64,000 nucleotides of DNA from an uncultured Desulfobacteraceae bacterium (GTDB taxonomy: Bacteria > Desulfobacterota > Desulfobacteria > Desulfobacterales > JALSRD01): assembly GCA_964476595.1 (NCBI GenBank), contig CAYZCL010000073.1, positions 14,980 to 78,979 on the forward strand, read 5' to 3'. Of this stretch, positions 50,171 through 60,800 are shown one piece after another. The translations under genes were made by a program, and so were the position numbers. Below the pieces are notes generated by a model. That model made no database searches and was not told the origin of the DNA. It saw only the letters and a list, made by a program, of their open reading frames with translations. Every line of letters starts with the position of its first letter. The stretch's first letter is position 1.

Positions 50171-51655
50171 CTACATCAGGAGGCGCTTTCGCCACCCGGC
50201 CGAGAGCCGCCGGAACGCCAGCGACGGCAGGCGGTTGGCCGCCAGAAAATCGGGCAGCTCGCGGCGGTTGCCCTGGGACCACCAGCCGCGCAGGATGTCA
50301 CCGGTCTTTTCGGCAAACAGCCAGTCGTCTCCCGCCGTTTCCTGCAGGCCGGCGTTCAGCGAGGCCTCGGCCATCCAGGCCATGAGGTAGTCCAGGGCGT
50401 AAAACTCCGGCACCAGGTCGAACAGGTGCCCGTCCGGCTGGTAGTAGAACCCCGTGTGGCGTCGCATCAGCTCGGCGTAGCGTTCTCCGCTGGACAGGTC
50501 CCCGCTCGCGAACATCTCGTACTCGGCTAGGAACTTGGCGCCGTAGCGGCGAAACAGCGATAGGTTGCGCAGCTGGCGACGGCGGTCCATTTCATCGGCC
50601 AGACCCGCCTCGACACCGGCGAATTCCGTGAGGAAAGACGGTGACAGCACGCATCCCTGCAGCAGGAAAGCCCAGGCCTCCGAGAGGCTGCAGCCGGTGG
50701 TCATCTCGCGGTCGGTGACGGGCAGGTCGGCGGAAGTAAAGGCCGCCGACAGTCCGTGGCCCAGTTCATGAAAGAGGGTCTCCAGGTCGATCCAGCCGCC
50801 CTGGGGACGCATGAGGATATGAATCTCCTGCGGGGTCTGCAGCACGAAACACATGGCCTGGGCCGTGCGGGATTCCTGCGGCAGCAGTTCGATGTACAGG
50901 GCCGGCAGGGCCTCCAGGTCGATGCCCCAGCGGTGCAGGGGGGCGGCCTGCTCTATCAGCGGCCGCCGGGGAAAGCACGCATCGTAGGCCGTCATGGCCA
51001 GCAGGTGGATGGCATCGAAGCGCGTGGCTTCCTCCAGGGGGATGTCGAAGCGCTCGCGGCACCAGCGCTCCATGCCGTCGAAGTAAAAGTCCTGCGTTTC
51101 GGCCAGCATCTGCTTTACGCGGTCGTACCAGAGGCGGTAGTCGATGTGCTTTTTTTCCGTGCAGTAGGCGATGTAGTCCGGGTAGCCGAATTCCGAGGAC
51201 AGGATCTCCAGCAGGTTTTCCCAGTACTGCCGGGCAAAGGGCGTCAGGAAACGGCACAGGGCGCGGGTTTCTTTCTGAAGTACTTGACGCTGGGCGCGGG
51301 TGCTCTGCTTCTGACACCAGGGGATGATCTGCCGGAAGTAGATGTTGCGGCCGTCCACCTGCGCCGCGGCGCCGTGGATCCAGGTGCGCAGCTCCACGTC
51401 GCTGGCCAGCAGTTCGCGCTGCAGGAAGTGGTCGATGAAGCAGTGCCGCAGGCGGTGGGTGCGCCTGTCGGCCGGGGCGCCGTCCAGGGTTTCGAGGGTC
51501 TGCGGGGCCAGCAGGGCACCGGACCGGCCGTAGCATTCGGACATCTGCACAGCGCCGCCGTCGCCCCGCCACTGGTCCAGGGAGGCCCGGCGCCAGCCGA
51601 GGGTCAGTTCGTAGAGCCCGCGCTCGATTTCGGACAGGTCGGGTTCGGATTTCAT
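50171..51655 (-). CDS. HExxH zinc metallopeptidase (M3/oligoendopeptidase-F-like)
   Basis: The C-terminal 494 aa of the chimeric track ORF 50171..53050, starting MKSEPDLSEIERGLYEL. Contains the HELGH motif. Confidence 0.65.
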   Translation of the reverse strand: MKSEPDLSEIERGLYELTLGWRRASLDQWRGDGGAVQMSECYGRSGALLAPQTLETLDGAPADRRTHRLRHCFIDHFLQRELLASDVELRTWIHGAAAQVDGRNIYFRQIIPWCQKQSTRAQRQVLQKETRALCRFLTPFARQYWENLLEILSSEFGYPDYIAYCTEKKHIDYRLWYDRVKQMLAETQDFYFDGMERWCRERFDIPLEEATRFDAIHLLAMTAYDACFPRRPLIEQAAPLHRWGIDLEALPALYIELLPQESRTAQAMCFVLQTPQEIHILMRPQGGWIDLETLFHELGHGLSAAFTSADLPVTDREMTTGCSLSEAWAFLLQGCVLSPSFLTEFAGVEAGLADEMDRRRQLRNLSLFRRYGAKFLAEYEMFASGDLSSGERYAELMRRHTGFYYQPDGHLFDLVPEFYALDYLMAWMAEASLNAGLQETAGDDWLFAEKTGDILRGWWSQGNRRELPDFLAANRLPSLAFRRLSAGWRKRLLM

Positions 51656-51758
51656 GAGAAACCATTCTCCACAAGGGTTCAGACTACAGGGTATCATTTC
51701 GGGACCGCTTTTGAAAGCCCGTTCTGCCGTCCAACGCCGCGTGTCCGCGCTTTTCTCT

Positions 51759-51787
51759 TTGACATGCAGGCCGGCCTTTTTTAATAT
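51759..51787 (+). promoter_or_regulatory. Predicted sigma-70 promoter giving a leaderless mRNA for the response regulator
   Basis: TTGACA (51759-64), a 17-nt spacer, then TAATAT (51782-87). The ATG at 51794 begins 7 nt after the -10 hexamer, and there is no SD. Confidence 0.5.
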
Positions 51788-51793
51788 CGGGAC

Positions 51794-52471
51794 ATGGCGG
51801 CGCCCAGGCAATCGATACTCATCGTGGACGATCACCCCCTGTTCCGGGAGGGGCTGCGGGCCATCATCACCCGCGACGGGCGTTTCGAGGTCGTCGGCGA
51901 GGCCGGCAGCGCCCGCGAGGCCCTGCGGCTGGCCAAACGCCTCAAGCCCAGCCTGATCATCGTGGATATCTCGCTGCCCGACCGCAGCGGCATCGAGCTG
52001 ACCAGCGAGCTGCGCCGTAAGCTTCCCGAAAGCCGCATCCTGATCGTCAGCATGCACTCCAAGATCGATTACATCGCCGAGGCCTTCCAGGCTGGCGCCA
52101 CCGGGTACGTGGTCAAGGAATCGGCCGCCGAACGGCTCATTGACGGTCTGGAGACCATCGCCGGCGGCGAGTATTTCCTGGACAGCTGCGTCTCCCACGA
52201 GGTGGTCAAGCGGCTCATGCAGATGCCGGCCAAGGACGCGCGCATCGCCGATGCCGGCTACGGTTCGCTGACCCCCCGCGAGCAGGAGGTCATGCGGCTG
52301 CTGGCCGAGGGGCTGAGCGTCAAGAAGATCGCCGAGAAGCTCTTCATCAGCCCCAAGACGGTGGAGAACCACCGGGCCAACATCATGAATAAACTCGACA
52401 TTCATAGCACCGTCGAGCTGATCCGCTACGCCGCGCGGCTGGGGCTCATCGACCTGGACCTGTGGCGTTGA
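51794..52471 (+). CDS. NarL/FixJ-family response regulator (REC + LuxR-type HTH)
   Basis: ILIVDDHPLFREGL..., IIVDISLPDRSG, and C-terminal LTPREQEVMRLLAEGLSVKKIAEKLFISPKTVENHR. Confidence 0.9.
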   Translation: MAAPRQSILIVDDHPLFREGLRAIITRDGRFEVVGEAGSAREALRLAKRLKPSLIIVDISLPDRSGIELTSELRRKLPESRILIVSMHSKIDYIAEAFQAGATGYVVKESAAERLIDGLETIAGGEYFLDSCVSHEVVKRLMQMPAKDARIADAGYGSLTPREQEVMRLLAEGLSVKKIAEKLFISPKTVENHRANIMNKLDIHSTVELIRYAARLGLIDLDLWR

Positions 52472-52495
52472 GGGGGCGTCACCGCAGCCGGGAAA

Positions 52496-52541
52496 ATTCC
52501 CCCCGGCCGGGCAAAATTCCCACCCAAATGAAGGTATTCCC
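52496..52541. repeat. Three phased copies of ATTCCC at exactly 20-bp intervals. The first two are embedded in CCGGG(A/C)AAAATTCCC.
   Basis: ATTCCC occurs at 52496-52501, 52516-52521 and 52536-52541, read directly. GGGAAAATTCCC has inverted arms GGGAA/TTCCC. Confidence 0.5.
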
Positions 52542-52657
52542 CTATGGACAAAAACGTTCGCATGCGTCATAGATAAAACAACGAGAAGTTCATGCTCGAG
52601 TGGAGTTGCGCAGGCAGACCCGCATTTGAGGACCGACAGCAGCCGAGGACGACACCG

Positions 52658-52867
52658 ATGATGAGCGAAGATTTTTCCCTGGCCGGACCCCGCCGCAGGA
52701 CCCCCCGCCGCCGTCGCCGCAAGAGGCCCCAATCTTTCCTGGACACCACCGCTATGGTGCGCTCGTTGCAGCGCCGCGAGGGGCGGCGCGACTGTTTCCG
52801 CCGTCCCGAGTTGGAGTGCTGCGACCCGCAGTGCCAGTGGTGGGATTACTGCCGGAACCGGGAGTGA
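52658..52867 (+). CDS. Possible small Arg-rich/Cys-rich protein (69 aa)
   Basis: Track ORF 52592..52867 trimmed to MMSEDFSLAGPRRRTPRRRRRKRPQSF...DCFRRPELECCDPQCQWWDYCRNRE (motif C-x7-CC-x3-C-x5-C). GAGGA lies about 12 nt upstream. It sits between the RR and HD genes on the same strand. Confidence 0.35.
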   Translation: MMSEDFSLAGPRRRTPRRRRRKRPQSFLDTTAMVRSLQRREGRRDCFRRPELECCDPQCQWWDYCRNRE

Positions 52868-53079
52868 GCGCCCAGGTCCCCGGGGAGATCGCAGGCGGTA
52901 TTCGCACCGGGTGACCCCCGGTGGGGATGCGCGGGCCGGCAACACCTCCCCGCCCGCCGACCGCGATGGCCCCGGCGTCGTGCCGATGGGGCGTTGACGG
53001 CGGGGGCGCGGTCCATTACAATCAGGCCATACCAGGGGCGTTTCTTTCAACCCGGTCGTTTCCAGGAAAGTGCCGCACC

Positions 53080-54240
53080 ATGCGTCTTTACGACTTGAAC
53101 GAGTTTTTCAAGCTCTCCTCGGTTCTCAACTACAACCTGAGCGCCGCCGCGCTGAACCGTCAGAACGTGCTGATGTTCATCACGGCGGACAAACCCCTGG
53201 CCGACGACCCGCGGCGTCACCAGGAGTACAACCTGATCCTGCTTGACGCGCTGGAGTACCTGTTTGCGGCCTACCGCAAGAAGCGCCGCCGCCTGGGGCC
53301 CATGGCCGTGCTCCACCCGCTGCGGGCCACGATCCTGTTCGCCCGCTCGGCCGAGCGGCTCAACTACCTCAACCTGATCAGCGTCATGTTCCACGACGTG
53401 CTGGAGGACATCCGGCCCCAGGACTTCGCCGACATCAACTGGCGCGAGATGGAAACGCGGCTGTACGCACTGCTGGAGCGCATGCCCTCCGGCGACGAGG
53501 CGGTGCTGCTGGAGCGCCTGGAGGCACTCACCAAGCTGGACGGCGAATCCTACTACGCCTACATCGGCCGCCTGTTGAAAGATGCGCGCCGCATTCCCGA
53601 CGTGGTGCTGATCAAGCTGGCCGACCGGTTGGACAACACGCTGGACATGCGCGTGGACATCCAGGACCCCATGGAGGGCGTCGATTTTTTTGAGAACATG
53701 TTCCAGATCCTGTTCGTGCGCAATTTCCCGGGTTACCGACCGGATTTGAGCCACCCCATGTCCTCGCCGCTCAACGGCGCCAAGCGCCTGTACCAGCTTT
53801 TTAAAAACGCGGTGCTGCTCTCGCTCATCCGGCAGTACCCCGTGGACGGCGACCGCGCACGACTCAGGACGCTTTTCGACGCCGTGGCCGAGGCCAGCCT
53901 GAGCGAGGCCCAGCGTACGCTGCTGCACCTCATGGGATACCACTTCCAGGCGGTCGCCGGCCAGCGCCGGCTGTTGCTCGACGCCATGGAATACTGTTAC
54001 AGCGGCCGCGGCTCGGTGGCCACCAAGCCGGGCAGCGGGCGGGACCTGGACGGGTTGTTTGCCGGCTATTTCGGCCCCCTGAACTCCGGGGAGCGCAATC
54101 GCAGGCTGGCCGGGCTATACAAAGATAAGCCCCTGATGATGCAGGCCTGCATCGCCTTCATCACCATTTTCCTGAGTTTTCTGAACGACGAGACTTTTTT
54201 CGTGGAGGGCATCAGCACGCGCGGGATCTCGCCGCGCTGA
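53080..54240 (+). CDS. HD-domain protein of the RelA/SpoT (p)ppGpp-hydrolase type (HD_4-like), with no synthetase domain
   Basis: Track ORF trimmed to MRLYDLNEFF. Motifs HPLRATILFA, MFHDVLED and IKLADRLDNT. Confidence 0.7.
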   Translation: MRLYDLNEFFKLSSVLNYNLSAAALNRQNVLMFITADKPLADDPRRHQEYNLILLDALEYLFAAYRKKRRRLGPMAVLHPLRATILFARSAERLNYLNLISVMFHDVLEDIRPQDFADINWREMETRLYALLERMPSGDEAVLLERLEALTKLDGESYYAYIGRLLKDARRIPDVVLIKLADRLDNTLDMRVDIQDPMEGVDFFENMFQILFVRNFPGYRPDLSHPMSSPLNGAKRLYQLFKNAVLLSLIRQYPVDGDRARLRTLFDAVAEASLSEAQRTLLHLMGYHFQAVAGQRRLLLDAMEYCYSGRGSVATKPGSGRDLDGLFAGYFGPLNSGERNRRLAGLYKDKPLMMQACIAFITIFLSFLNDETFFVEGISTRGISPR

Positions 54241-54255
54241 GAGGACCGCCGTAAA

Positions 54256-55365
54256 ATGACCGACAAAGCCACCATGCGGGCGCTGCGGGAGCGAGTGGCC
54301 GCCCTGGAGGCCGAACTGGCCGGGCGGCGAGACCGTCCCGACGGCGACGAACTGGACTACCGGCTGGCGGTGGAGAACGCCAACGAGGCCGTGGTGGTCA
54401 CCCAGGACGGCCGTTTCCGCTACGTCAACGCCAAGGCCGTGCAGATCTCGGGCTATTCGCGGCAGGAACTGCTCGACCGGCCTTTCCTGGACTTCGTGCA
54501 CCCCGACGACCGCAGGCAGGTGTTGCGTCAGCGCGCCTACCCCCCCGACCGGCGGCACCGGGCGCGCCCCTTCACCCTGCGGCTGGTGGCCAGGGACGGG
54601 CGGGTGCGATGGCTGGAGTGCCAGAGCATCCGCATCCTCTGGCAGGGGCGCACGGCCGTGCTCAGTTTCCTGAGCGACGTGACCGTGCGCCAGCAGGCCC
54701 AGGACCGCATCCGCAGCCTGTCCCAGCAGCTCATCCGCGCCCAGGAAAAGGAGCGCCAGAGCATCTCCTGCTACCTGCACGACCGGGTCGCCCAGGACTT
54801 GTCTTCGTTGCTGATCACCGCCAAGACCCTGCTGGCGGATGAGCCGCACGTCGGCGACGACACGCGCGACAAGGTGGAGCGCATGTGCGAGGTGCTGCGC
54901 CAGTGCATCGACGCCGTGCGCAACCTGGCCTACGACCTGCGGCCGCCGGTGATGGAACAGCTGGGCCTGGCGCCCGCCATCTACCAGTACTGCGAGGATT
55001 TCAGCAGGGAAACCGGCATCTGCGTGGATTTCACCTCCGCCGGCATGGACGCCCTGGACCTGGCCGCCGAGACCGAGATCAACCTTTACCGGCTGGTCCA
55101 GGAGGCCCTCAACAACATCCGCCGGCACTCCGGCGCCTCGCGGGTGGCGGTCAAGCTGATCGCCTCGTCGCCCCACATCATCCTGCGTGTCGAGGACAAC
55201 GGCAGGGGCTTCGACGTGGAGGAGCAGCTGATGCACGCCTCGGAGAACAAGCGCATGGGCCTGGGCGGCATGGTCGAGCGCGTCAGCCTGCTCAAGGGAA
55301 AGCTGCGCATCGAGTCGCGCCTGGACCAGGGCACACGCATCTTCGCCGAGGTGCCCATCGGGTAG
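54256..55365 (+). CDS. PAS-containing sensor histidine kinase (HisKA_3 + HATPase_c; NarX/LiaS type)
   Basis: PAS segment (VVVTQDGRFRYVNAKAVQISGYS), H-box ISCYLHDRVAQDLSSL, and ATPase motifs (EALNNIRRHS, DNGRGF, GLGGM). Confidence 0.9.
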   Translation: MTDKATMRALRERVAALEAELAGRRDRPDGDELDYRLAVENANEAVVVTQDGRFRYVNAKAVQISGYSRQELLDRPFLDFVHPDDRRQVLRQRAYPPDRRHRARPFTLRLVARDGRVRWLECQSIRILWQGRTAVLSFLSDVTVRQQAQDRIRSLSQQLIRAQEKERQSISCYLHDRVAQDLSSLLITAKTLLADEPHVGDDTRDKVERMCEVLRQCIDAVRNLAYDLRPPVMEQLGLAPAIYQYCEDFSRETGICVDFTSAGMDALDLAAETEINLYRLVQEALNNIRRHSGASRVAVKLIASSPHIILRVEDNGRGFDVEEQLMHASENKRMGLGGMVERVSLLKGKLRIESRLDQGTRIFAEVPIG

Positions 55366-55414
55366 CCCCGGAGGGGACGGCGGGCGGCCCCGGCAAGGGC
55401 GGTACCGCAACCCG

Positions 55415-56479
55415 TCAGCCCGACGTCCCGCCGGCCGGGTAACTGCCCAGGTTCTTGAGCGAGAGGGTCATCTCCTGCATGCGCGTCAGCACCGCGGCCA
55501 CGTTCTCGTCCGCCAGCGATCCCTCGAAGTCCAGGAAGAAACTGTAGTTGCTGGGATCCGAACGCAGGGGCATGGAGGCGATGCGCGTCAGGTTGATGCC
55601 TGCCTCGGCGAAGAGCTTGAGCACGGAGTAGAGTTCGCCGGCTTCGTGGGCCACGGCGAAGATGATGGAGGTCTTGTCGCCGTGGCCGTCGTAGGCCTCC
55701 CTGGACAGCAGCAGGAAGCGCGTGGAGTTGGAGGCCTCGTCCTCGATGCCCTCCTTGATGATGTCCAGGTCGTAGAGCTCGGCGCACAGCGCACTGGCGA
55801 TGGCGGCCGAGGCCTTGGGGTTTTCGCGGGCCAGCATCTTGGCGGCGCCGGCGGTGTCGTAGTAGGGCCGGGCCTCGAGCTTGTTGCGCAGCAGGAAGTT
55901 GCGGCACTGGGCCAGGGCCTGGGGGTGGGAGTAGACCACGCGGATCTCGCGGTAGTCGGTCTCCTCGGTGGCCAGCAGGCAGTGGTTGACCGGCACCTTG
56001 ATCTCGCCGACGACCTTCAGCGCGGTGGTCGTCAGCAGGTCGTTGACCTGGGTGACGGCGCCCTCCAGGGAGTTTTCCACCGGCACCACGCCCAGGTCGA
56101 AGTCGCCCTCCTCGACGCCCCGGAAGACGTCGACGAACTCCAGGCAGGGGATGTAGGCGCCCTCGGGCACCAGGCCCCGGGAAGCCACCTCGCCGTAAGC
56201 GCCGTGTTCGCCCTGGAAAGCCACCAGGGGGCGGTCCTCTTCCTGCAGGCGCCGGCTCTCGTCGATGATGGCCTTGAGCAGCTGCCGGGAAAAGGAACTT
56301 TTCACCAGGTCCAGGTTCAGGCGGTCCATGCGGGCCAGCGCATCTTCCTCGCGGGCCGCGTCGGTGTCCGATTTCTGCAGTTTCCGTGACAGCAGGGCCA
56401 GCCCCATGCGTTCCTGCAGCAGGACCAGCAGTTCGCGGTCGATCTTGTTGATCTTCTTGTGAAGTCCTTCCAGTTTCAT
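55415..56479 (-). CDS. pheA: Bifunctional chorismate mutase / prephenate dehydratase (P-protein) with ACT domain
   Basis: Track ORF trimmed to MKLEGLHKKINKIDRELLVLLQERM (CM_2). PDT motifs VAFQGEHGAYGE and TRFLLL, plus ESRP-like ASMPLRS in the ACT domain. Confidence 0.9.
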   Translation of the reverse strand: MKLEGLHKKINKIDRELLVLLQERMGLALLSRKLQKSDTDAAREEDALARMDRLNLDLVKSSFSRQLLKAIIDESRRLQEEDRPLVAFQGEHGAYGEVASRGLVPEGAYIPCLEFVDVFRGVEEGDFDLGVVPVENSLEGAVTQVNDLLTTTALKVVGEIKVPVNHCLLATEETDYREIRVVYSHPQALAQCRNFLLRNKLEARPYYDTAGAAKMLARENPKASAAIASALCAELYDLDIIKEGIEDEASNSTRFLLLSREAYDGHGDKTSIIFAVAHEAGELYSVLKLFAEAGINLTRIASMPLRSDPSNYSFFLDFEGSLADENVAAVLTRMQEMTLSLKNLGSYPAGGTSG

Positions 56480-56516: not shown

Positions 56517-57332
56517 TCAATCCGGCAGTCCGTTCATGAAGTCGCACAGCGGGCGCAGGCGCCCCATGAGGTCGGTGAACATGGGCGGCGTGAGGGCCTG
56601 GGCCGCGTCGCACAGGGCCTCTTCGGGACGGTGGTGTACCTCGATGATCAGGCCGTCGGCGCCGGCGGCCACCGCCGCCAGGCTCATGGGGGGGATCAGG
56701 CTCAGCCGGCCGGTGCTGTGGGTCGGGTCGATGATGATGGGCAGGTGCGTCAGCTCCTTGATGGCGGGCACGGCGCTCAGGTCCAGGGTGTTGCGCGTGT
56801 AGCGCTCGAAGGTGCGGATGCCGCGCTCGCAGAGGATCACGTTGGGGTTGCCCTCGCTGAGGATGTACTCGGCGCAGTTGAGCCACTCCTCCAGGGTGGA
56901 GTACATGCCGCGCTTGAGCAGCACGGGGCGCCCGGTCTGTCCCACCTCCTTGAGCAGCGAGAAGTTCTGCATGTTGCGGGTGCCGATCTGTAGCACGTCG
57001 GCGAACTCGGCCACCCAGGAGACGTCCCGGGGGTCGATCACCTCGGTGACGATGGGCAGTCCCGTCTCGCGGCCGGCCCGGGCCAGCAGTTTCAGGCCGC
57101 GCAGGCCCAGACCCTGGAAGGCGTAGGGCGACGTCCTGGGCTTGAAGGCCCCGCCCCGCAGCATGTCCGCCCCGGCCGCCTTGACGGCCCGCGCGGAGGC
57201 CATCATCTGCTCCTCGCTCTCCACGCTGCAGGGGCCGGCGATGACCACGAAATCCCGGCCGAACGCCACGCCGGAAACGTCGATGACGGTGCGCGGCCGG
57301 CTCTCACGCACGGCTAGTTTGAGGTTTTTCAT
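56517..57332 (-). CDS. aroF: 3-deoxy-7-phosphoheptulonate (DAHP) synthase, type I-beta
   Basis: Track ORF trimmed to [13 protein letters not shown]. Motifs [20 protein letters not shown] and IIDPTHSTG. Confidence 0.9.
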
Positions 57333-57357
57333 TTTGTGCTCCCTGGTTTGAGGTCCC

Positions 57358-57438
57358 CGAAAGAAAAAGGGCCCCGGGTTTCTCCCGGGGCCCCTTGAAA
57401 ACAGAAAACCCCGGGTGGTGTTGAAGTCCACCCGGGGT
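57358..57438 (-). terminator. Two tandem GC-rich hairpins, each followed by a U-tract, in the aroF leader (attenuator)
   Basis: On the minus strand: ACCCCGGGTGG-ACTTCAACA-CCACCCGGGGT then TTTCTGTTTTC (57438-57396), and GGGCCCCGGG-AGAAA-CCCGGGGCCC then TTTTTCTTTC (57393-57358). Confidence 0.6.
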
Positions 57439-57460
57439 CGACAACGTCCGAAGTTCGGCG

Positions 57461-57544
57461 TCAACCGTCCGGATGAACGCTTCTAAAGCCGAAAAAGAAG
57501 CGTTCGAAACGAAAAAAGCCGGTTTTCCAAAAAGTCGGTTTCAT
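57461..57544 (-). CDS. Phe-rich leader peptide (27 aa) of the aroF-pheA operon
   Basis: Too short for the supplied track. SD GGAGA sits 7 nt before ATG 57544. Hand translation gives [27 protein letters not shown] followed by a stop (8 Phe and 1 Trp in 27 residues). Confidence 0.65.
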
Positions 57545-57570
57545 CTTTTTTTCTCCACTGGCCGGTATCC

Positions 57571-57599
57571 ACTTAGCCGCGTCGCGGCGCGAATGTCAA
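57571..57599 (-). promoter_or_regulatory. Predicted sigma-70 promoter of the leader-aroF-pheA unit
   Basis: On the minus strand: an A8 tract, then TTGACA (57599-57594), a 17-nt spacer, then CTAAGT (57576-57571). Confidence 0.4.
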
Positions 57600-57833
57600 T
57601 GTTTTTTTTGGTACGGCCGACAGCCGTTTTCATAAACTCCAGCCGGTAGGTCAAAGGGAGAACCCCGTTTTGAGGTCATCCCATGAGACGCGCGTTTCGG
57701 AATCGACGCAGGCCGCCCGGGCAACTCTCAAGTATGGACAATCAGTGCATCGCTTTTTCCGAAAAAGCATGTATATCGCTGGAAAAAGACTTTCTACGAA
57801 TTGCCAGGCCGATGCCAAATCCGGGTTTGGGAA

Positions 57834-60800
57834 TCAGGCCAGTCGTTCGTTGTCGGAGCCTGCCCGCCTGTCGCGCTCGAAGCCGATGAAAAACGACAGC
57901 AGGGCCGGTACCACGAAGAGGGTGAAGACGGTGGAGACCGCCAGGCCGCCGAGCAGCACGCTGCCCAGGCCGCGGTAGAGTTCGCTGCCGGGGCCGGTGG
58001 AGAGCACCAGCGGCAGCATGCCGAAGAGACTGGTGGTGGCGCTCATGAAGATGGGGCGGATGCGGGTGCGCACGGACTCCAGGATGGCTTCGGTGCCGGC
58101 CAGGCCGTTGTAGCGCACGTTGTTCAGGGCCTGGTGCACGATGAGGATGGCGTTGTTGACCACCGTGCCCACCAGGATGACGAAGCCCAGCATGGTGACA
58201 ATGTCGAAGGACTGGGGCGCGATGAAGCGGTTGACCAGGTCGAGGCCCAGGAACCCGCCGGCGCCCGCCAGGGGCACGCTGAAGAGGATGATCAGGGGAT
58301 AGAAGAAGTTTTCGAACAGCGCCGCCATGAGCAGGTAGATGATGACGGTGGACAGCAGCAGGTACCACTGCATGGCCGCCAGGGCCTGGGAGAGCTTGTC
58401 GGCGTTGCCGCCCACCGTGACCGCCACCCCGGACAGCTTGCCGGCTTTGTTCAGGCCGCCGATGATGTCGCGCTGGATGGTTTCCATGGCGGCCTGCAGG
58501 GGCACTTCGCGGCTGGGGGTGACCTCCAGCTTGATGTTGCGGCGGCGCTCGAGGTGATCGATCTGCGTCATGCCCTGGCTGTACTGCAGACGGGCCACGT
58601 CGGCGATGCGGATCAGCCTGCCGTAGCCGTTGGCGATGGGGCTGTCGGCGATGTCCTCGGGGGCCGTGACGTGGCTCGGGTCGGAACGCAGCACGAGGTC
58701 GATCTTCTTGGCCTGCTCGGGCTTGTACTCGCCCACCTTGCGGCCGTCCATGATGACGTCCACGTAAAGGCCGACCTCCTCCTCGGTCATCCCGTTGGCC
58801 ACCACCCGCGAGCGGTCGGGAACGAAGTTGACCTCCGGATAGCTGTTCTCCAGCGAGGGCACCGGCCGCACCTGGGCCCCGGGCATGCGTTTGCGGATGG
58901 CGCCGAACAGGGTGCGCGCCGCCTGGATGATGGTGTCCACCGAACGGCCGGAAACGTCGACCTCCACCGTTCGGCCGCGGCCGATGCCGCTCTGGAAGAT
59001 CCCCGACTGGATGCTGACGCCGTAGATGCCCGGCATGCTGTGGATGATGCGCGTGAACAGCGGCATCATCTCGCGGGCGCGGGTCTCGTGGGCGCTGATG
59101 GCGCCGAAAAGCGTCATGCGGTCGGCCGACACGTAGAAGATGTTCTTGATACGGGGGATGCCGTCCTTGAAGTCGCTCTCGTAGTAAGGTCGCGTGGCCT
59201 TGAAGATGAAATCGCCCAACTGCCGGCGCTTGGTGATGGAGTAGCCCGGCGGCGGGATCAGGATGTTGAGGATCAGGTTGCGGTTGCCCTGGGGAAGGTA
59301 CTCGGCCTTGGGCACCAGCAGCCAGGCGGTCAGGCAGGCCGCGCCGGTGAGGATCACCACCGTGGCCAGGCGCGTGGCCGTGTTGCGGATCGACAGCCGC
59401 GAGAGGTTCACCAGCGCGTCGGAGATGCGTGCGCCGAACCGGCCCAAGGCGCCGCCCTTCTGCGCCTTTTTGCGGGCCAGGCGGTAGAAGAGGTGGGTCA
59501 TGGCGGGGATCACGGACACCGACACCAGCAGACTGATGAAAATGGCGAAGGTGATGGCGATGGCAATGTCCTTGAAGAGCTGGCCGGCCTCCTCCTGGAT
59601 GAAGATCACCGGCACGAATACCGCCACGGTGGTGGCCGTGGAGGCCAGCACGGCGCCCCACACCTCGCGGGTGCCGTCCAGCGAGGCCGCAAAGGGGCTC
59701 TTGCCCATGTTGCGGTGGCGGTCGATGTTCTCCAGCACCACGATGGCGTTGTCCACCAGCATGCCCACCGCAAACGAGATTCCCGCCAGGCTGACCACGT
59801 TGAGGCTGCGGTTGAAGATCCACATGAAAACGAAGGTGCCGATCACCGAGATGGGGATGGCCAGGGCCGTGACCAGGGTGGAGCTGACGCTGCGCAGAAA
59901 GAGCAGCAGCACGCCCATGGCCAGCAGACCGCCGACGATCACATTGCGCTTGACGATGGACATGGCGTTGAAGATATACGGGGTCTGCTCGTAGACGATT
60001 TTGAAGCGCAGGTTGTTGTCGGCCAGCAGGCCGGTGTTGAGCCCCTCCACGGCCCGCTTCATGCGGCGGGTGAGGGCGATCACGTTGGCGCCCTGTTCCT
60101 TGCGCACGCCCACCACGATCACCGGCGTGCCGTTGTGCATGACGGCCGTGTCGTTGGTGGCGTAGCCCATGCGCGCCTGGGCCACGTCGCGCAGCGAAAC
60201 CCGGTGGAAGCCGTCGTTTTCCAGCAGGATGTCCAGGGCTTCGGCCGGGCTTTGGAACTGGCTGACGGTGCGGATGCGGTAGTTCATCTTGTGCATGCCC
60301 AGCAGGCCGGCCGACACGTTGCGGTTGGCGGTCTGCAGGCGGTTCATGACGCGGGAGGCGGTCAGGTCGTGGCGGGCCAGGGCCTGGGGTGAAACCACGA
60401 TCTCCAGCTGCTTTTCCGATCCGCCGAAGACGAACAGGGAGCCCACCCCGGGCACGCGCTCCAGGTGCTGGCGGACCTCGTTTTCGAAGAAGGTGCGGTA
60501 GGTGTCGATCTTCTGCGGCGGCCCCTTGCGGGTCATGAGCACCATCCAGATGACCGGCGAGCTCTGGGCGCCGGAGGCCGTGATGACCGGTTTTTCCACG
60601 TTCTGCGGGTAGCGGCGCACCTCGTTGAGCTTGTTGGAGACGCGCAGCAGGGCGGCGTCGATGTCGGTGCCGACCTCGAAGGTCAGCGTGATTTCGCCCA
60701 TGGCGTTGAAGCTGGAGCTCTCCATGAGGGTCAGGCGCTGGATGCCCTTGAGCACGTTCTCCTGCTCCTCGATGATGTCCTTCTCCACCTCGTAGGGCGC

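Follow-up and report, generated by a model that had tools for sequence, protein, structure and literature searches.

A phenylalanine-codon leader ORF and tandem terminators ahead of aroF-pheA in an uncultured Desulfobacteraceae bacterium: a probable ribosome-mediated attenuator with a possible relay to a second terminator

The Leader of aroF-pheA

The stretch analysed here, in the following called the window, comprises 64,000 nucleotides (nt) of contig CAYZCL010000073.1 from an uncultured Desulfobacteraceae bacterium. On its minus strand it carries aroF and pheA, which encode a 3-deoxy-D-arabino-heptulosonate 7-phosphate (DAHP) synthase and a bifunctional chorismate mutase/prephenate dehydratase, and ahead of them a leader in which a short phenylalanine-rich open reading frame (ORF) is followed by two GC-rich hairpins (Table 1). 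A preliminary description, made from the letters alone, had read this arrangement as a Phe-codon leader peptide driving a ribosome-mediated attenuator of aroF-pheA. The conservation of the ORF, the set of alternative helices, and the folding of nascent RNAs with a masked ribosome footprint all support that reading, and the element is very probably a Phe-responsive leader-peptide attenuator.

The individual parts named in the preliminary description have all been recovered on the minus strand: the A8 tract, the TTGACA hexamer, the Shine-Dalgarno sequence, the 27-codon ORF, a hairpin within the Phe-codon stretch (helix P1, which is conserved in relatives), and the two hairpins with U-tracts before the aroF start codon. 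The identity of the controlled genes has likewise been confirmed by matches to PF00793, PF01817, and PF00800. Transcription of the leader presumably starts near 57563, ∼19 nt 5' of the leader ATG. At least five aromatic residues within any eight are found in only 2 of the 709 small ATG-initiated ORFs (10-60 amino acids) of this 66% GC window, the leader ORF being one of the two, and the leader region folds better than 200 of 200 shuffled versions (z = -3.35).

Table 1. Leader elements, controlled genes, and neighbouring genes, in window coordinates
Feature	Position	Strand	Remarks
A8 tract, UP-element-like	57609-57602	minus	adjoins the -35 hexamer on its 5' side
-35 hexamer TTGACA of the leader promoter	57599-57594	minus	
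Putative weak -10, CTAAGT (17-nt spacing) or TAAGTG (18-nt spacing)	57570..57576	minus	placed by comparison with relatives
Leader Shine-Dalgarno GGAG	57556-57553	minus	8 nt 5' of ATG
Leader ORF, ATG 57544, 27 codons plus TGA (57463-57461)	57544-57461	minus	8 Phe and 1 Trp
Segment 1 GAACGCTTCT, codons E14-F17	57505-57496	minus	5' arm of helix P1 (1:2)
Core regulatory Phe codons 16-18 (TTC TTT TTC)	57491..57499	minus	
Segment 2 AGAAGCGTTCATCCGG, codons R21-D26	57484-57469	minus	5' part pairs with segment 1, 3' part with segment 3
P1 3' arm AGAAGCGTTC	57484-57475	minus	within the leader ORF; hairpin with GAACGCTTCT
AT1 part of segment 2, GTTCATCCGG, codons V23-D26	57478-57469	minus	
Spacer with stop codon and small variable hairpin	57438..57468	minus	hairpin caps the antiterminator
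Hairpin/U-tract 1, terminator T1	57439-57397	minus	-24.2 kcal/mol when folded
Segment 3 CCCCGGGTGGAC, T1 5' arm	57426..57437	minus	invariant in 23/23, including 'AC' of the T1 loop
CCGGGTGGAC, T1 5' arm and first two loop nt	57435-57426	minus	partner of segment 2
Segment 4 CCACCCGGGG, T1 3' arm	57418-57409	minus	followed by U-tract UUUUCUGUUUUC, to 57397
Hairpin/U-tract 2, terminator T2	57396-57359	minus	-27.5 kcal/mol; called by the terminator scan
Segment 5 AAGGGGCCCCGGG (also given as GGGGCCCCGGG), T2 5' arm	57384..57396	minus	CCCCGGG core can pair with segment 4
Segment 6 CCCGGGGCCC and U-tract UUUUUCUUUC, T2 3' arm and tail	57359..57378	minus	
aroF Shine-Dalgarno AGGGAG	57344-57339	minus	
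aroF, 271-amino-acid type I-beta-like DAHP synthase	56517..57332	minus	PF00793, E = 1.4e-80; ATG 57332
pheA, bifunctional chorismate mutase/prephenate dehydratase	55415..56479	minus	PF01817 and PF00800; public gene call starts at 56479
PAS histidine kinase	54256-55365	plus	
LuxR-type response regulator	51794-52471	plus	

Terminator T2 consists of a 10-base-pair (bp) GC stem with a U5CU3 tail. The terminator scan has listed T2 but not T1, because the 9-nt loop of T1 exceeds the scanner limit of 8. Since the gap of 26 nt between the T2 tail and the aroF ATG leaves no room for a promoter, aroF-pheA would have to be expressed by read-through of both terminators. The missing promoter room also bears on the idea that the leader forms a separate gene for a small RNA or small protein, with its own tandem terminators, aroF-pheA being transcribed from elsewhere. 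Tandem terminators are indeed typical of gene ends, and attenuator-derived trans-acting small RNAs exist, such as rnTrpL/peTrpL of Sinorhizobium (PMC7298713). However, wherever the element has been found it lies on the same strand and 5' of aroF or of an ACT-aroF pair, and its mutually exclusive helices tie the ORF to the terminators, which makes an independent gene highly improbable; a trans function could coexist with attenuation and would not replace it.

Conservation in Related Loci

Homologous regions have been fetched by aroF similarity from 80 genome and 80 metagenome loci. The closest aroF relatives, with 76-89% identity, are metagenome-assembled genomes (MAGs) labelled as Desulfobacterales and Desulfatiglandales. 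The same leader has been found on the aroF strand of 23 further Desulfobacterales-like genome or metagenome loci, thus in 24 with the window, either directly 5' of aroF or 5' of a small ACT-pair gene (PF19571) that precedes aroF, and both ORF and hairpins are conserved across these 23 other loci. The ORF has 24-32 codons and starts with ATG in 23 of the 24 loci (GTG in L096). Its peptides share the motif x-F-G-(R/C)-F-F-F-x-F-R-(S/G/C/R)-V-H-P-x-x-stop, with an FFF core, or FYF in three loci, in 23 of 24; the remaining locus, L003, is degenerate and reads LFS at this place. In all 24 loci the stop codon lies exactly two codons past H-P. Such a comparison of aroF upstream regions had been named as a check in the preliminary description, and frame, Phe run, and stop position have been retained throughout. 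Of the leader codons counted there, the Phe run has stood as the conserved signal; the single Trp codon has not, as it lacks conservation in the relatives. Phe, with occasional Tyr, is thus taken as the signal.

The expression signals recur as well. TTGACA is present in 24/24 loci, and 18 of the 22 measured ones have it 53-61 nt before the start of the leader ORF; in most relatives it is preceded at a distance of 2-4 nt by a run of A5-A8. At the place equivalent to the putative -10 of the window, relatives carry TATTGT, TATGCT, or TATAGA, and most have a motif such as GGAG, AGGA, GAGG, or GGGA at a similar distance from the start codon as the Shine-Dalgarno sequence. The spacer between segments 2 and 3 measures 27-33 nt in the relatives measured by hand, and its sequence is not conserved.

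Single loci depart from this layout. L084 (positions 1930-1990) has kept the full leader with T1 and lost T2. Of the element, L083 (1780-1900) retains only segment 4 with T2, promoter, ORF, and segments 1-3 having been lost. In L097 (1480-1500) segment 3 reads CCCCGGGCGGAC, a T to C change that places a mismatch in the antiterminator (A.C) as well as in T1 (C.A), so that both alternative helices are weakened by a single substitution.

A covariance scan with Rfam models over 56800-58200 at E≤10 has returned 16 weak matches, none of them a leader family or T-box, and no gathering-score hits have been obtained in 20 related loci. Membership of Phe_leader, T-box, or other known Rfam leader families has accordingly been rejected. 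These scans also speak against the view that the ORF is incidental and that the leader acts as a T-box-like or PheR/TRAP-like riboregulator, which would switch the same terminators on binding a ligand, a tRNA, or a protein. Such a regulator would find some resemblance in segment 3, whose GGGUGGAC superficially looks like the T-box core GGGUGGNACC, and T-boxes do use alternative terminator and antiterminator structures. But the ORF takes up the mere ∼100 nt available on the 5' side of segment 3, and it is conserved in its start codon, frame, Phe run, and stop position; the upstream part of the leader is conserved in codon content and not in sequence. A riboregulator of this kind is hardly to be expected here. 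With no Rfam entry for the element, the leader will go unnoticed by gene callers and RNA annotators in many environmental genomes, and a covariance model of it would improve the annotation of operons and regulons.

Alternative Helices and Covariation

The leader RNA can be divided into six segments, between which five mutually exclusive helices can all be formed. Helices 1:2 (P1), 3:4 (T1), and 5:6 (T2) would make up the OFF state, helices 2:3 (AT1, the antiterminator) and 4:5 (AT2) the ON state. The preliminary description had already proposed a 1:2/2:3/3:4 scheme. Its alternative pairing has held, but it was restricted to the four terminator arms and therefore left the ribosome unconnected to them; the helix that leads from the ORF to the first terminator had been missed.

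Pairing has been counted over 23 aligned sequences. P1 is paired in 98.7% of the alignment cells and shows many wobble changes and one compensatory change, an A-U pair in the window where relatives have G-C. T1 is likewise paired in 98.7%. In AT1, GTYCATCCGG, which spans the V-H-P codons and ends 7 nt before the stop codon, pairs with CCGGGTGGAC over 10 bp in 100% of the cells and in 23/23 sequences. T2 has been scored after a separate re-alignment, the window row being shifted in the MAFFT alignment (63% pairing there), and compensatory changes have been found in relatives for 6 of its 11 pairs.

The shared complementary cores of the GC-rich arms, which the preliminary description had pointed out, have gained weight from AT2, the pairing of the T1 3' arm with the T2 5' arm. 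This helix is paired in 96.8%, and one of its pairs is U-A in 11, C-G in 9, and U-G in 2 sequences; none of 500 shuffles has reached the observed score. The C-G and U-A types are interspersed on the aroF neighbour-joining tree and accompanied by wobble intermediates (L086, L092, and L096), which indicates several independent switches. This correlation between segments 4 and 5 is not required by T1, because in T1 the varying base faces an invariant G, with which C and U can both pair. Taken together, the comparative sequences support helices 1:2, 5:6, and 4:5 by covariation.

Constraint on RNA Pairing

Within the ORF, the pattern of substitutions argues that the constraint acts on the pairing of the RNA and not on the peptide. 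The Ser codon of R-S-V-H-P varies to Gly, Cys, or Arg with base pairing kept, and the Arg codon of segment 1 has become Cys through a C-to-U change that retains a G-U pair. In the window, a synonymous C-to-T change in segment 2 restores the pairing altered by a Gly-to-Glu change in segment 1. Conversely, no synonyms of the CAT and CCG codons are used in relatives, and the synonymous sites of V, H, and P are frozen. Such a pattern is expected where segment 2 must pair with both segments 1 and 3. The same holds outside the stems: 'ATCCGG', which lies 3' of P1, and 'AC' in the T1 loop belong to neither of these stems and are nevertheless invariant, as the 2:3 pairing would explain, whereas the rest of the loop varies freely.

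The frozen V-H-P codons could also be read as part of a peptide motif, F-R-S-V-H-P, that acts by nascent-chain arrest or as a sensor, as in TnaC or SecM, so that regulation would depend on the peptide rather than on the supply of Phe-tRNA. The invariance of V-H-P and the stop position fixed in 24/24 loci would suit a motif of this sort, and slow termination is known from stop codons with a Pro nearby. Yet the neighbouring residues change non-synonymously (S to G/C/R, R to C/K, and G to E) with pairing kept, the freezing of synonymous V, H, and P positions fits pairing of the RNA with segments 1 and 3, and the other conserved feature of the peptide is the Phe run. We thus regard a peptide-dependent mechanism as improbable.

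Proposed Mechanism and Folding of Nascent RNAs

The element combines a translatable ORF, a cluster of Phe codons, intrinsic terminators, an antiterminator, and a 1:2 helix over the regulatory codons, features of sequence and structure by which attenuators of this class are recognised. The compared sequences and folding models suggest with good confidence that aroF-pheA is under the control of a classical leader-peptide attenuator, in which ribosome-mediated transcription termination responds to charged Phe-tRNA. In the proposed course of events, the leader would be transcribed from the A-tract/TTGACA promoter. With plentiful Phe, the ribosome would reach the stop codon and cover segment 2; if the ORF were left untranslated, segment 1 would sequester segment 2 in P1. 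In either case T1 (3:4) could form and transcription would halt near 57400, and a polymerase escaping T1 would then meet T2 (5:6). With scarce Phe, the ribosome would stall on the FFF run (codons 16-18, also F13) and mask segment 1, so that the freed segment 2 (GUUCAUCCGG) could pair with segment 3 (CCGGGUGGAC) as soon as the latter is made, thereby blocking T1. Segment 4 (CCCGGGG), set free in turn, would pair with segment 5 (CCCCGGG) and block T2, and the polymerase would read into aroF-pheA. This course presumes translation of the leader ORF, stalling of the ribosome, and, in kinetic terms, a sufficient lifetime of the ON helices once these have formed.

Minimum free energy (MFE) folding of nascent RNAs from 23 sequences, with the ribosome footprint masked, gives the expected switch between the two states; a prediction of alternative folds had been named as a check in the preliminary description. 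With the ribosome stalled on the Phe run, AT1 is formed in 23/23 sequences when the RNA extends through segment 3; when it extends through segment 5, AT1 is found in 21/23 and AT2 in 20/23. With the ribosome at the stop codon, RNAs reaching through segment 4 or 5 form T1 in 20-22 of 23 sequences, and without a ribosome, RNAs through segment 4 form P1 in 20/23 and T1 in 20/23.

Several observations weigh against the mechanism as drawn. Owing to the weak -10 of the window, no full sigma-70 promoter has been called by a consensus promoter scan of the leader region; the promoter is therefore assigned from the conservation of the A-tract/TTGACA, which lies at a nearly uniform distance from the ATG. 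AT1 is invariant and thus without covariation, so that conservation and complementarity are its support. In principle, gene conversion or another form of co-evolution between two similar terminator arms could also have produced the covariation of segments 4 and 5. L084, without T2, and L083, with only segment 4 and T2, indicate that a relay is dispensable in some genomes. Finally, the energies calculated for the window favour AT1+AT2 over T1 in the RNA through segment 5 (-49.8 vs. -41.0 kcal/mol) but T1 over AT1 through segment 4 (-36.0 vs. -31.0 kcal/mol), and through segment 6 the order is T1+T2 (-66.8), AT1+T2 (-59.8), and AT1+AT2 (-50.4 kcal/mol). The terminator states are consequently more stable at equilibrium, and read-through needs kinetic trapping, as in E. 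coli trp. A purely thermodynamic argument has been dropped for this reason, as equilibrium MFE alone does not predict antitermination at T1; on these models, the ON state would represent a kinetic trap at both decision points.

How far the control extends to the second terminator is the part of the scheme that is held with the least assurance. We lean somewhat towards a 4:5 relay to T2 that works as described above, judging from the compared sequences and the modelled folds. Since both strong terminators must be passed for the biosynthetic genes to be expressed, a T2 that is conditional through 4:5 is more plausible than a fixed one. Against this stands a simpler arrangement, which we consider less likely: a classical Phe attenuator acting on T1 only, with T2 as a fixed, partly efficient back-up or the remnant of a duplication, and with 4:5 as a by-product of the shared palindromic CCCGGG-type core. 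It would agree with the energies, T2 being thermodynamically stronger than AT2 in all 22 of the 22 sequences that have T2 and the combination AT1+T2 beating AT1+AT2 in the window, with L084, whose leader appears from its sequence to work without T2, and with the near-duplicate terminators of a second leader type (type B, below). On the other side, segments 4 (Y) and 5 (R) covary in a manner not reached by any of the shuffles, although the invariant G of T1 accepts either base; the pair switches recur across the aroF tree; a strong constitutive T2 placed so close before aroF would choke essential genes; and with a stalled ribosome and segment 5 transcribed, 20-21 of the 23 sequences have AT1+AT2 as their MFE structure.

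If a single sensor indeed acts on two serial terminators, a compact and very tight OFF state would result, which, once confirmed, would be of interest to engineers of RNA switches. The aroF product comprises the catalytic core only, without regulatory extension or allosteric domain. The attenuator may thus be the main feedback on carbon entry into the shikimate pathway in these uncultured, sulfate-reducer-like bacteria, and it would tie the entry of the pathway and its Phe branch to one signal.

Relation to Known Attenuators

The four-segment model established by Yanofsky for the E. coli trpL attenuator serves as the general scheme for such leaders. Segments 1-4 of the window copy its logic, down to the location of the stop codon, at which a terminating ribosome would lie over segment 2, and to a terminator whose thermodynamic stability exceeds that of the antiterminator; trpL differs in the amino acid that is sensed, in its single terminator, and in the lack of a downstream relay. 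Closer in function is the pheL-pheA attenuator of E. coli and other gamma-proteobacteria, represented in Rfam as Phe_leader (PMC3082878). It shares with the window a short ORF with a Phe run, mutually exclusive 1:2/2:3/3:4 helices, and a terminator before the gene for chorismate mutase/prephenate dehydratase, and it senses charged Phe-tRNA through the position of the ribosome, as is proposed by analogy for the element described here. However, the window leader shows no homology to it in sequence or structure (no Rfam hit at E≤10), is longer (27 codons), and possesses two tandem terminators and the fifth helix 4:5. Furthermore, its first controlled gene encodes DAHP synthase, so that pathway entry and Phe branch are regulated together, and its lineage is Desulfobacterales-like.

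A leader-peptide attenuator ahead of a DAHP synthase gene has been reported for Corynebacterium glutamicum, where the aroR leader peptide before aroF answers Phe limitation via Phe-Tyr-Phe codons (Neshat et al. 2014, reviewed in PMC11802643). The analogy is one of function and position only: aroR is actinobacterial, has a short F-Y-F in place of the 5-8 Phe found here, belongs to an operon of other content, and, as far as can be judged, seems unrelated in sequence to the window leader. The review describes no tandem terminator or relay (PMC11802643). Two serial intrinsic terminators within one 5' leader, giving a tighter OFF state, are known from Desulfovibrio thiSGHFE, in front of which two THI elements each have their own terminator (PMC545781); there, every terminator has its own sensor, whereas one leader ORF appears to set both in the window.

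An aromatic attenuator in delta-proteobacteria has no section in Rodionov et al. (2004), and aro or phe leaders are not mentioned by Naville and Gautheret (2010). A literature search, conducted mostly outside subscription journals, has yielded neither a description of this leader family or its occurrence in Deltaproteobacteria nor any one-sensor/two-terminator (tandem-terminator) leader-peptide attenuator. The principle is textbook knowledge; as far as we have checked, novelty lies in the leader family, in the proposed relay, and in how widely the theme of aromatic leaders extends.

Other Aromatic Leaders Upstream of DAHP Synthase Genes

In the fetched loci, regions up to 1100 nt upstream of aroF have been scanned for small ATG-initiated ORFs with at least five F/Y/W in eight residues. 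In this DAHP synthase subfamily, such aromatic-rich ORFs have been found on the sense strand of 59/148 loci compared to 4/148 in the antisense control, which points to a much wider, still undescribed regulatory theme. Firmicutes-like (M..YFYFYFR) and Anaerolineales-like (YFFYYYFWW) examples are among them.

Beside the leader of the window and its relatives (type A), two further types have been distinguished. Type B leaders (e.g., MEGLNYIPGYYYFWYRNRRPRCL) carry all three aromatic amino acids in runs such as YYYFWY and YYYFFW; behind them comes a tandem pair of near-identical terminators, the arms of which share complementary CCATGG cores. They occur in Syntrophia-like and other delta-proteobacterial relatives (L018:100-290, L028:2800-3000, L035:2800-3000, L010, L013, L019, L105, L106, L108, L111, L114, and L120), and the two-terminator architecture would, on the basis of the codon runs, respond to each of the three aromatic amino acids. 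Type C leaders (..FFGF[FY]SFS[YF]..) are found in MAGs labelled by several depositors as Micrarchaeota (DPANN archaea) and in unlabelled metagenome contigs (L008:2825-3000, L009:2807-3000, L011, L012, L034, L099, L109, L118, and L128), 5' of aroF genes of 71-74% identity. They are preceded by TTTAAATA-like motifs that resemble TATA boxes. A hairpin with weak covariation joins the stop region of the ORF (GGAAAACC) to a downstream GGTTTTCC behind T5 runs, and a classical hairpin plus U-tail is missing. To our knowledge, there is no established example of leader-peptide attenuation in Archaea; should the Micrarchaeota-labelled MAGs be truly archaeal and their ORFs regulatory, type C would provide one.

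One may speculate that the window element belongs to a large uncatalogued cassette that travels with the I-beta DAHP synthase subfamily, with type A as a five-helix relay and sister types rich in Tyr, Phe, and Trp in other Desulfobacterota and in Firmicutes-like, Chloroflexi-like, and Micrarchaeota-labelled loci (the last with an F-G-F-F-S-F-S string), a conjecture that we consider rather unlikely to hold.

Gene Neighbourhood

The order aroF-pheA is conserved in relatives. In the window the two genes form a two-gene operon, since a convergent PAS histidine kinase gene comes next (Table 1). The minus-strand ORFs 54115-55410, 53047-53943, and 50171-53050 have been considered as further operon genes and rejected, as they have no Pfam hits and the histidine-kinase gene on the opposite strand is real; these spurious high-GC ORFs of 431, 298, and 959 amino acids (50171-55410) overlap real plus-strand genes.

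In some relatives, the gene of an ACT-pair protein (PF19571, 147-159 amino acids) lies between leader and aroF (L002:1043-1486, L006:2035-2493, and L138:1401-1880). The ACT-pair protein may serve the domain-less DAHP synthase as a detachable regulatory subunit. L021 (2880-3000) retains only a 3' remnant of the gene, and the window has none. Upstream of the leader, an AcrB-family gene ends at 57834. Between the acrB stop codon and the leader promoter, a short minus-strand hairpin (ACGGC-tgtcg-GCCGT, 57613-57627) runs into the A8 tract. As this hairpin has no minus-strand U-tail, acrB lacks an obvious intrinsic terminator, and some read-through from acrB into the leader is possible.

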